From the NCBI RefSeq assembly GCF_054482595.1, contig NZ_JBTHVH010000006.1: DNA of 46,161 bases; one strand, written 5' to 3'. Below are positions 37,201-40,200 of this stretch, in pieces. This stretch comes from a plasmid. Position numbers: made by a program. Position 1 is the first letter of the stretch; the number at the start of each line of letters is the position of its first letter.

Positions 37201-40200
37201 AGGGATTTCCGAAAGAGGCGCGAACTGTAGTTACATAATGCGCTGTCGTAACATCGCGCCGGAGACGTTCGCCAGGACTGGCGAACCAACAAGCCCGAAT
37301 GAGAGCGATAACCCCCCTCACCCCTGCCAGGCCAATTTCTGACTATCAGACGATGTTTAGCCTGTCGCAGTTAGCGCGTGAGCTTGCGAACGGTACGCCG
37401 GGTCAGTGTGAAACACTGGCGCGGGGCGCTGTATCTGCGCGTTATGAGATGCGTTAGCAGCGAATTACGGGGCGGGTTGCTGAAACCGATTGATGCCTGA
37501 CAGCAAAAAATGAATCCGGGCGCCAGCTGCTGCACGAAAATTGCCAGCAAAAAACACTTGGCCATCCTCGCCGGTCGTGAAATTTTGCTGGCGTAAGAAA
37601 TAATCCCCCCGGTATGAGGGGCTTGTCTGAAAGGTTAGTGGTTGGGCTTACTGAGAGTGAACTGTAACCCGGCTACTGCTGCAAGCTGTGCAAGTGTTGT
37701 GATGGTCGGGTTTCCGTTCGGGGATAATGCGCGGTAGATACTCTGACGAGCAAGGCCGGATTTTTTGGCCGCCTCTGTTATACCCCCTGATTAGGGATCA
37801 GGTTAAAAACGAGCTGTATGACGTTCTAAGCGCATTTTACCCGCTCCGTTGAACCATGACCGGGTTAAAGCGGTTAAAACGCCTCTGAGGGCTTTTGAGA
37901 GCATTTAAGAATTGGATCGGAAAAGGATCCCGTCTGGATCTTTTAGAGAGATTACACCGCTCGCCGCAGCCGAACGACAGGGCGAAGCCCGCGAGTGAGC
38001 GAGGAAGCGGAATTTCCACGGGGTTTCAATAGAGCACTTACGCGCTAAGGTTAATATTTGCTCAATTTTTGGTGGTGCAGTGCTCAGGGAGGCCAGACGG
38101 ATCTATCCTCTGGATTTATGCTGAGTTATCCACAGACGCTGTGCATTAAAAGCCTTATATTTTCTTCTTGATCTTAAAAACTTAAAAACTTAGCTCGCTT
38201 CAATTACCTGAAAATTATGGAAAAAAATTGCTAAAGGTGAGAGGATTTTTCACGTAAGGTGAGAGGATTTTTCACGTAAGGTGAGAAGATTTTTAAGTTA
38301 AGGTAGTTAGATTTTTCACTAAAGATGAGAGGATTTTTCACGTAAGGTGAGAAGATTTTTAACGGTTTCCACAGTTTGACTGAACATCAAGTGAAACATG
38401 CGGTTGTTGCTATCTTTAGATATGAAGATCCTCAGATCTTCATATCTAAAGGTGAGAGGTTTTTTAATTAAAGGTTGTATTGTTGTCTTGAATTACAACC
38501 TTTGTGGGGTTATGATTTGCCTACATAGGAAAGGTTATATGAGGCTTATCGTGAAGACAGTAACGGGATTAACGAAAGTTAGACATAGAAATGAAGTTGG
38601 GGTAACTCTTGCATCCCTTTCCCTTTCAGCAAAAAGAGTGCTTTTTCTGGCTCTTTGCCAGATTGATACAAAGGAAATGTTAGATGATGATATTTTGGAG
38701 GTTGATGCTGACTTTTTTTCAAAAGCTACTTCTTTAGATAAATATGCCTCTTATGCAGCTCTGAAAGAGGGAGCTAAAGTTCTTTCTTCAACTACGTTAG
38801 TTTTAAACAGAGATGATTTAAAAAATTTGGCTGATGAACTTGGGATACTATCATCTAAGAATAAAATACCTGATCGCTTGGATTTAAACTTAACAGAATT
38901 CTGTGCCTATTACGATCATCTTGCAACTGTACGGATAAAATTCACAAATACAGCTAAGCGATATTTTTCTAAGTTGATTGGTTCTGAAAATAGATATACC
39001 ACTCAGGTATTGAAATCAGTTGTGTTGTTGAACAGTGTAAACTCAACAAACCTTTATCAAGTCATTAGGAAATATTACAGTCAGAATAGTTCAAAAAAAT
39101 CTTTTGATATATCCGTGGATGATTTAAAAGAGGAAATGGGACTTTATACTATTGAGGAAGGGGAGAAGAAATATAAGTATCCTAAATACTCATTTTTTGT
39201 TCGTGATGTTATCAATAAAAGCATTAATGAGATAATTGAGAAAACGGAAATAAATCAGTTATCTTTCTCTGTTGTTGGGAAAAAAGGGAGAATGGCTCAC
39301 ATGCTTAGATTTGAGTTTAGTATAAATGAAAAATCCTCATCCTTTTCGGAAGATGATATGGCATTTTTAGAGGAGTTTGACAAAGTCGTTCCACCAAAAA
39401 AGAATAAGTGAGGCAAAACATGGCTAAAATATATGAGTTTCCGCAGGGAGCCGAACGAAGTAAGCTGAAAAAAGAAATCATCCGGGAACGTAAAAAACGA
39501 TTGCGAGAAACGAACGGTAACCCGGTTATCCGGCACGCTAAATGGTTCTGGTTTTATCTACGTCTTGCTACGGCTGGCGCACTGCATTTAGTCTCTGTTA
39601 TTTCTCTGGCAGTCCTGGGGGCTTTCAGTAAAGCTATTTTCTGGATTGGTGGAATGCTCTGTGTTGTTACATGGTTCCACCTTGAGCGCCAGTTCTGGAC
39701 GCCGCAAAATTTCACGATTCCAGTAATCGTAACGCTGTGGGGATTGAGTTTGTTTGCCACTCCCCTGATGGAGCTGCTTAACAAAAAAATGCCGTGGTAT
39801 CGTCTTCTGGTTCCTGATGCAAAGCACACTAGCACTGAGGCAACCAATGATGATCAGCCGTGAAGCAACAATGTTATCCAGTCGGCTTGCAGTGCTTCTT
39901 TCAGCCTTTTATCATCGGTTAATCATAGCGCACGAGGCGAGTTCTTTTCACTGCGATGCAGGATAGGGCAAACGCCGCAAAATGACGTCTCTGACGCCAT
40001 TCCGCAACGTTTGCCCGGTGACCTACAGTCGGTTCTTGTTGGAGAGAGTTATGAAATATCAGGTTAAAGAGTTTATTAACGAAAAATATTCTAAGGCTGT
40101 TAATATTTTAAAGGATAACCTTAAAGAACACTACCATATTTTTTATGGTTTGAGATTAAGTGAGATTCTTTTTCCTGCCAGCGAATACGGCTCTGAAATG

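Follow-up and report, generated by a model that had tools for sequence, protein, structure and literature searches.

The gamma origin of the IncX2 plasmid R6K contains seven iterons, an eighth iteron, and inverted half-iterons bound by dimers of the initiator protein pi. In the E. coli origin oriC and in the heptamer repeats of the P1 plasmid origin, clusters of GATC sites are bound by SeqA when they are hemimethylated. Rep dimers have been found to bind inverted half-iterons in the rep promoter and to autorepress (PMC3401445, PMC5397158), and for IncX3 plasmids, genome papers already give about six iterons, pir and bis, three putative oriVs, and two oriTs (PMC5955891). Here we analysed a complete IncX3 plasmid (contig NZ_JBTHVH010000006.1), which makes up the whole 46,161-bp stretch of DNA called the window below, and a perfect palindrome at 38414-38451 in the leader of its initiator gene pir, between the iteron array and the pir operator. 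The reading that we prefer, and hold only tentatively, is a composite one: the palindrome would be a duplication, perfected by template switching, of an older tract that is not an iteron, and the tract, not the hairpin, would be functional and read by a factor other than pi.

Origin of the palindrome in the pir leader

An inverted-repeat search and the alignment of leaders placed the left arm of the palindrome (CTTTAGATATGAAGATC) at 38414-38430 and the right arm (GATCTTCATATCTAAAG) at 38435-38451 on the + strand, with the loop CTCA at 38431-38434 (+ strand) as given by the sequence and by comparison of leaders. An earlier note on this DNA had described a perfect 17-3-17 palindrome standing apart from the iterons. 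The arms are indeed complementary at 17/17 positions, but the loop has 4 nt, hence 17-4-17. Likewise, the palindrome is distinct from the classical operator at 38470-38503, but its right arm ends in 6 nt (CTAAAG) that also begin the seventh iteron. It is the longest perfect inverted repeat with a short loop in the 46-kb plasmid, and an arm of 17 nt was reached in none of 100 Markov simulations of a 46-kb sequence (maximum 14). With up to 3 mismatches allowed, no second copy of an arm was found in the rest of the plasmid. From the end of the palindrome to the -35 hexamer of the pir promoter is 37 bp, and the predicted start of transcription is about 72-110 bp downstream of the palindrome. No extra or leftward promoter was found inside the palindrome in IncX3; a weak leftward promoter candidate in the sister lineage described below is not conserved in IncX3.

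The next-longest perfect palindromes in the plasmid are a 28-bp TTATCTGTATCGTACGATACAGATAA-type palindrome (14-0-14) at 12316-12343 and a 12-6-12 palindrome (GGTATCAGGTTG...CAACCTGATACC) at 34640-34669. In an IncX1 plasmid (L007, NZ_CP016509.1), the right arm of a perfect 8-3-8 palindrome (TTTAACGT-ATG-ACGTTAAA) at 1306-1324 extends into the operator iteron, an echo of the IncX3 arrangement in unrelated sequence.

The closest relatives outside IncX3 (L003, L004, and metagenomic copies) have pi proteins 82-86% identical to that of the window and a collinear leader. When this sister lineage was compared with the window, the right arm was the same at 16/17 positions and the left arm, which reads ATTTTGATGTGAATACA in the sister lineage, at only 11/17, and the 38-nt block of the sister lineage was self-complementary at 10/17 positions about the centre of the palindrome (P=0.012). 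Thus, an old quasi-palindrome appears to have had one of its arms rewritten so as to match the other. Both arms are intact in a divergent IncX3 sublineage, which differs by about 3.5% over 1.9 kb. In two records, NZ_CP074546.1 and NZ_CP117754.1, the loop reads TGAG, the exact reverse complement of CTCA, between unchanged arms, and close relatives of these records (L014-L016, L131, L260, and L261) keep CTCA. Because the R6K-type leader reads TTCA at this place, the CTCA loop is ancestral; the ancestral direction, with the sister-like state first, rests on the match of the right arm and the loop to the R6K-type leader.

Homogenisation of arms and inversion of the spacer are documented products of template switching (PMC8604942), as in the quasipalindrome mutations of E. 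coli (PMC7202029). Both of these sequence signatures were found here, namely an imperfect repeat in a relative with the changes limited to one arm, and an inverted spacer between unchanged arms. The imperfect symmetry of the sister lineage, the one-arm changes, and the exact inversion of the loop therefore resemble the published cases (PMC8604942, PMC7202029); the difference is that template switching is deduced here from a comparison of natural plasmids, not from an observed mutation. Taken together, the comparisons indicate that the palindrome probably arose by template switching. In the IncX3 lineage, the weak mirror image (10/17) on the left would have been overwritten by an inverse copy of the right arm, most likely in one replication template-switch event that yielded the perfect palindrome, and template switching would later have inverted the loop in one sublineage. 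The loop inversion in this sublineage shows that hairpin or strand-switch events do occur at the palindrome. Since template switching explains the perfection of the palindrome simply, the perfection does not by itself imply a function.

LC744511.1 was considered as an intermediate lineage and rejected, as it carries an ordinary IncX3 leader identical to that of the window. Scans of metagenomes and genomes with AAAGGTTGTA-N12-16-TACAACCTTT returned generic hairpins, with at least nine true IncX leaders among the matches listed; TATCTAAAGGTGAKARG is an example of a more specific query for lineages between IncX3 and the sister group.

The conservation of the region was examined in nine IncX3-type leaders, in which 31 of 434 non-coding sites vary. 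The segment 38367-38484 (118 nt) is without any substitution except the loop flip, and a run of this kind has a probability of P=0.0018. The segment also includes the operator iteron and one arm of the operator, and the evidence that it offers for selection on the palindrome itself is modest.

A conserved 8-bp repeat tract and rival readings

Periodicity and pattern searches showed that the loop and the right arm of the palindrome form a tract of three tandem 8-mers, GATCCTCA / GATCTTCA / TATCTAAA, at 38427-38450 on the + strand, with GATC at 38427 and 38435. The homologous tract of the R6K-type leader reads GATCTTCA / GATCTTTA / GATCTAGC. Positions 38427-38447 of the window (GATCCTCAGATCTTCATATCT), which comprise the inner GATC, the loop, and most of the right arm, match GATCTTCAGATCTTTAGATCT of the R6K-type leader at 18/21 positions on the same strand, a level reached in none of 300 shuffles (maximum 15). 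The tract was matched at 16/21 positions in IncX5 (P=0.003) and at 15/21 in IncX1 (P=0.007), and no match was found in the IncX4 leader. A periodicity at lag 8 was found in IncX3 (P=0.004), IncX2 (P=0.002), and IncX1 (P=0.008). The R6K-type tract has three GATC sites with the same 8-bp period, and GATC-N4-GATC is conserved between IncX2 and IncX3. While the R6K-type tract lies 20 nt after the array and outside any long palindrome, the IncX3 tract adjoins the operator iteron and is mirrored into the perfect 17-nt arms. In the IncX4 plasmid L006 (NC_010657.1), the place of the tract at 1292-1331 is taken by GAATC-type repeats with an 11-bp period (GTGAATCTATT TTGAATCTGTT GTTAATCTGCC TTGAATC).

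Because the tract is conserved in IncX2 and IncX3 while their iterons differ (AAAGGTGAGAGGATTTTTCA in IncX3 vs AAACATGAGAGCTTAGTACG in R6K-type IncX2), the tract does not follow the specificity of the initiator. The conservation of the core across differing iterons argues against its recognition by an iteron-specific pi, and it follows that the tract, if read at all, is most likely read by a non-pi factor. The suggestion of the earlier note that the palindrome may bind a second regulator thus gains in part, as a core kept at 18/21 fits such a factor. A function through a non-pi factor is nevertheless, in our estimate, on the doubtful side. The functional unit, if any, would be the conserved double-stranded tract and not the hairpin, and the palindrome would simply double the 8-mer tract. 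As GATC-N4-GATC is the only recognisable feature of the tract, a Dam-methylation-sensitive or host-factor site is our working mechanism: such a site beside the operator iteron would transiently alter the occupancy of the operator or the origin after the passage of a replication fork. The likeness to the GATC clusters of oriC and P1 is that Dam sites lie close together within short tandem repeats, next to initiator sites and a DnaA box; the differences are that IncX3 has only two such sites, with 4 bp between them, and that GATC is absent from the tract position in IncX1 and IncX4.

Several observations weigh against this composite reading. The number of GATC sites in the tract is one in the sister lineage and in IncX5 and none in IncX1, and IncX4 has no tract. 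GATC is not enriched in the origin region, and the whole plasmid has 173 sites as compared with 178 expected. SeqA has been tested at GATC separations of 5 to 34 bp, with emphasis on a same-face geometry (PMC2691817), and the 4 bp between the two GATC sites of the tract is outside that range. No report that R6K or IncX replication depends on Dam or SeqA turned up in the papers searched. The invariance of the 34 arm positions alone is not significant (P=0.07), and perfect inverted repeats can stay perfect by repeated template switching without selection (PMC8604942, citing PMC5941160). Finally, the identity of the block in sister lineages may reflect recombination and not constraint, and one leader (L057) resembles a recombinant between types L003 and L004.

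Some of the same observations favour a neutral origin, in which the palindrome is the footprint of template switching at a quasi-palindrome, tolerated upstream of the real operator, self-correcting, and without any function beyond that of the ancestral right-arm tract, if it has one. That the changes are limited to one arm, that the loop flip is polymorphic, that sister plasmids replicate without a perfect palindrome, and that the plasmid holds no other copy of an arm all agree with a by-product, as do the arm-only P value and the reported homogenisation of short inverted repeats without selection (PMC8604942). The 118-nt invariant block across IncX3 lineages that differ by about 3.5% elsewhere is harder to reconcile with neutrality, and the retention of the core tract in IncX subgroups that share only about 43% identity in pi suggests that the sequence matters. 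We consider a purely neutral by-product unlikely, though the likeliest of the rivals. Less probable again, and in our view rather unlikely, is a second pi operator, in which a pi dimer would bind the arms as degenerate partial iterons that face inward; such a site would cooperate with the seventh iteron and the -35 repeat in autorepression or in origin pairing (handcuffing). Read inward, the arms align without gaps to iteron positions 1-16, and positions 3-16 score 9.7 bits with the iteron position weight matrix (PWM), a score that ranks within the top 0.018% of plasmid positions and is the highest in the leader outside the iterons. The half-sites in iteron register span 34 bp (38416-38449), as the classical operator does, the palindrome adjoins a bona fide iteron, and Rep dimers are known on inverted half-iterons (PMC3401445, PMC5397158). 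Much of this similarity, however, is forced by the 6-nt CTAAAG overlap with the seventh iteron, from which four matches come free. The independent part (iteron positions 7-18) is only in the top 0.07-0.5%, which is not significant once corrected for all the positions and matrices that were scored. In place of the TGAGRG core, the palindrome reads TATGAAG. The arm (TTAGATATGA) matches the iteron (AAAGGTGAGA) at only 5-6/10 positions in the half equivalent to the R6K dimer site, with the GAGRG core broken in the half that would contact the dimer; PWM positions 3-13 give the arm only 4.2 bits (top 0.34%). Of the features of a Rep-dimer operator, none was found in the palindrome: it is not a copy of half an iteron, it is outside the promoter, and its core, common to IncX2 and IncX3 despite their different iterons, does not co-vary with initiator specificity. 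The operators bound by F RepE and pPS10 RepA dimers find their likeness instead in the inverted partial iterons that overlap the promoter at 38470-38503 (PMC5397158, PMC3401445), from which the 17-nt palindrome differs in lacking an iteron core, in its upstream position, and in not tracking iteron specificity. In this respect the earlier note was essentially right to call the palindrome not iteron-like, its similarity to the PWM being weak.

Two structural explanations are less probable still. Very unlikely is a cruciform or hairpin at the DNA level that absorbs supercoils, pauses forks, or serves as a single-strand priming signal near the origin. The palindrome has perfect A+T-rich arms and a 4-nt loop, folding gave a DNA hairpin of -15.7 kcal/mol per strand (z = -7.2), and the loop inversion implies that the arms were paired in vivo at least once; but any inverted repeat can pair transiently during replication, so that the flip is no sign of a stable cruciform. 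Because the origins of the sister lineage, IncX2, and IncX5 are without comparable hairpin potential at this place, a structural role is not a general requirement of IncX plasmids. The least probable explanation, to which we give very little weight, is a terminator or insulator, in which an RNA hairpin would halt transcription entering from the origin side before it reaches the operator and promoter of pir. A lenient scan found here the only terminator-like site on the + strand in 37900-38700, with a stem of 20 pairs followed by AGAGGTTTTT, and the predicted RNA hairpin is stable (-27.6 kcal/mol, z = -4.9). On the other hand, the stem is A/U-rich with 5 G-C pairs, the U-run begins 5-8 nt past the stem, which is non-canonical for an intrinsic terminator, and the palindrome did not qualify as one. 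No + strand promoter was predicted within 37900-38487, the R6K-type and sister leaders gave no terminator-like site at the corresponding position, and Rfam gave only spurious sub-threshold matches to miRNA hairpins, with no match to a known RNA family.

Three further candidates were tried and set aside. As a site for CRP (TGTGA-N6-TCACA), TATGAAGATCCTCAGA matches 8/10 positions, which is not significant as the plasmid has 16 equally good matches. The palindrome has no composite motif of the plasmid-wide operator family (CTTTACA-N-TGTAAAG, ATCTTTAT) and no arm copy elsewhere. Binding of a ParG-type ribbon-helix-helix protein was suggested by the 8-bp period, as for ParG of TP228, and was dropped; the repeats of the par region have no 8-bp periodicity. 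A 103-aa candidate protein gave no Pfam match. ATCTTYAK words are 3.5-fold enriched in the plasmid and scattered.

A broader form of the composite reading, which we regard as improbable, is that the 8-mer tract found between array and operator (CTTYAKAT-like, with GATC-N4-GATC in IncX2 and IncX3) is a so far unrecognised element of replication control in IncX plasmids, R6K included. It would be read by SeqA on hemimethylated DNA, by ATP-DnaA at AGATCT boxes, or by a conserved plasmid protein, and would couple pir expression or re-use of the origin to fork passage. If so, the IncX3 palindrome would be a doubled, stronger element that helps to keep this epidemic resistance plasmid stable and its copy number under tight control. 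Neither the palindrome nor the 8-mer tract was found described in the literature, in a search that reached few of the primary R6K papers.

Organisation of the origin, the operator, and pir

The region of the palindrome is 100% identical to hundreds of PLSDB records typed as IncX3, conjugative, and MOBP/MPF_T, and many IncX3 plasmids of 46,161 bp are 100% identical to the window. Judged by its sequence features, the locus of this IncX3 plasmid combines a gamma-type replication origin with the control region of pir and resembles R6K in its organisation; every sequence-level feature used to assign members to the R6K/IncX gamma-origin family was found in the origin and operator. The predicted layout is a DnaA box and an A+T-rich stretch, six iterons, a second DnaA-like box, and then the pir operator.

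Left of the origin, a perfect DnaA box, TTATCCACA, lies at 38126-38134 on the + strand and is the only exact copy in the plasmid by pattern search. It is followed by an A+T-rich segment at 38140-38230, which contains GATCTTAAAAACTT; the composition profile gave a GC fraction of 0.28-0.35 across about 38150-38240. Six 22-bp iterons with the consensus CKTAAGGTGAGARGATTTTTMA occupy 38231-38362 on the + strand, in the exact register that the earlier note had stated, and were found by repeat and PWM searches (24.7-35.9 bits). They are the predicted binding sites of pi monomers for initiation. Directly right of the last array iteron is a DnaA-box-like sequence, GTTTCCACA, at 38365-38373 (+ strand, pattern search), and a TCCACA-type box after the array is also present in the sister and IncX4 leaders. 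No IHF consensus was found in 37800-38600. Three GGATC motifs with an exact 11-bp spacing (GGATCGGAAAAGGATCCCGTCTGGATC) lie at 37914-37941, about 200 bp left of the DnaA box.

The seventh or operator iteron, CTAAAGGTGAGAGGTTTTTTAA, was found at 38446-38467 on the + strand by repeat search (29.2 bits with the PWM). It is 83% identical to the reference over 30 nt and is the counterpart of the eighth iteron of R6K. From iteron 6, the last of the array, to this iteron the start-to-start distance is exactly 105 bp, or ten helical turns, in IncX3, and the same distance was found in both sister lineages and in IncX1, as compared with 145 bp (IncX2, IncX5) and 160 bp (IncX4); the comparison set was the window, L003, L004, and L007 (105 bp) vs L005, L006, and L008. 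The earlier note had placed the seventh iteron just before the pir start. It is actually 72 nt upstream of the pir ATG, and between the two lie a second inverted repeat and the sole sigma-70-like promoter.

This second inverted repeat, which the earlier note did not mention, is the classical pir operator at 38470-38503. An inverted-repeat search identified its inverted half-iterons as AAAGGTTGTA (38470-38479) and TACAACCTTT (38494-38503), with a 14-nt spacer in which the -35 at 38488 sits. The predicted pir promoter, TTGAAT-N17-TATGAT at 38488-38516 on the + strand, with TATGAT ending at 38516, is the only sigma-70-like promoter predicted upstream of pir. The arms of the operator, the seventh iteron, and the -10 are invariant in 8/8 aligned leaders. 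The R6K-type leader has an extra iteron followed by AAAACATGAGA-N13-TCTCATGTT, with the -35 TTGACT in and next to the spacer, of which the AAAGGTTGTA/TACAACCTTT pair is the counterpart. The layout of the promoter matches in R6K-type and sister-lineage leaders; IncX4 and IncX5 each use half-iterons of their own in an operator of identical arrangement, and a related, nested version is present in IncX1. The predicted pir operator consists of one more iteron and an inverted half-iteron pair that brackets the -35, and in our analysis this operator would already account for the autoregulation of pir. An effect of the palindrome on pir autoregulation, as the earlier note had proposed, finds no support in view of this operator and of the distance of the palindrome from the predicted transcription start.

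The pir gene at 38539-39411 on the + strand encodes a 290-aa initiator of the Rep3 family with WH1 and WH2 domains (Pfam Rep3_N, 1.2e-10; Rep3_C, 3.5e-07). By BLASTP, it is 43% identical to R6K-type IncX2 pi over the full length from Met1 (E = 4e-69). Most RefSeq IncX3 records give pir as 337 aa from 38398, an extension (38398-38538) that reads through the palindrome. The alignment with R6K-type pi begins at Met48 of this annotated open reading frame (ORF), which is the ATG at 38539, and the start favoured in the earlier note was therefore the correct one. In the loop-flip variant, a TGA stop falls within the 5' extension, and RefSeq gives the 290-aa form there. An N-terminal extension through the palindrome was rejected in view of the homology start at Met48 and this stop, and the 337-aa annotation is probably wrong. 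The best non-array match to the iteron PWM in the whole plasmid is an inverted, iteron-like 22-mer within the 3' end of the gene, CGAAAAGGATGAGGATTTTTCA (39327-39348, - strand, 19.2 bits), which may correspond to the pi site in the beta origin of R6K.

Downstream of pir are an ORF in the position of bis (bis-like) and then ddp3. Inverted repeats of 110 nt (33843-33952 and 39947-40056, 98% complementary) flank the replication region, as described for IncX plasmids (PMC3402527), and the pair matches the IncX long inverted repeats that are said to carry two oriTs. The likeness to R6K extends from the Rep3-family initiator, the tandem 22-bp iterons with a GAGRG core, and the flanking DnaA box, A+T-rich region, and DnaA-like box to the extra iteron with inverted half-iterons around the -35, the GATC-rich 8-mer tract between array and operator, the bis-like and ddp3 genes, and the long inverted repeats. 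In contrast to R6K, IncX3 has six array iterons instead of seven, a distance of 105 bp and not 145 bp from array to operator iteron, and operator half-sites diverged from the iteron sequence (AAAGGTTGTA, 7/10), where the R6K-type leader has near-exact arms.

Elsewhere in the plasmid, composite repeats (ATCTTTAT-N5-CTTTACA-N1-2-TGTAAAG), together with many copies of GTCTTTAY, occur at 37150-37177, 41593-41620, and 42309-42560. They sit upstream of a parA-like gene, between parA and a small downstream gene, and upstream of a gene for a DnaJ-domain protein, and probably serve a plasmid protein as centromere, operator, or res-type sites. The gene for a resolvase is at 42671-43351. In the IncX4 plasmid L006 (NC_010657.1), a perfect CRP core, TGTGAGATAAATCACA, at 1361-1376 is 14.5 bp upstream of the IncX4 operator iteron, with an exact-match chance of about 1e-4 in the 139-nt spacer. 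From its sequence and position, this core may be a cAMP-CRP input into IncX4 pir.

Implications for IncX3 plasmids

The overall architecture of the locus is known, and the palindrome is a modest, lineage-specific variant of it. The outcome of the analysis is a correct map of the IncX3 origin and operator with the true pir start. The palindrome is a clean natural example of how template switching can perfect an inverted repeat and invert its loop inside a regulatory region. The conserved 8-mer tract would be a small, testable addition to the R6K paradigm, and the current understanding is not overturned. IncX3 plasmids are a main carrier of carbapenemase genes such as blaNDM, and it is this control region on which the copy number and the stability of these plasmids depend.

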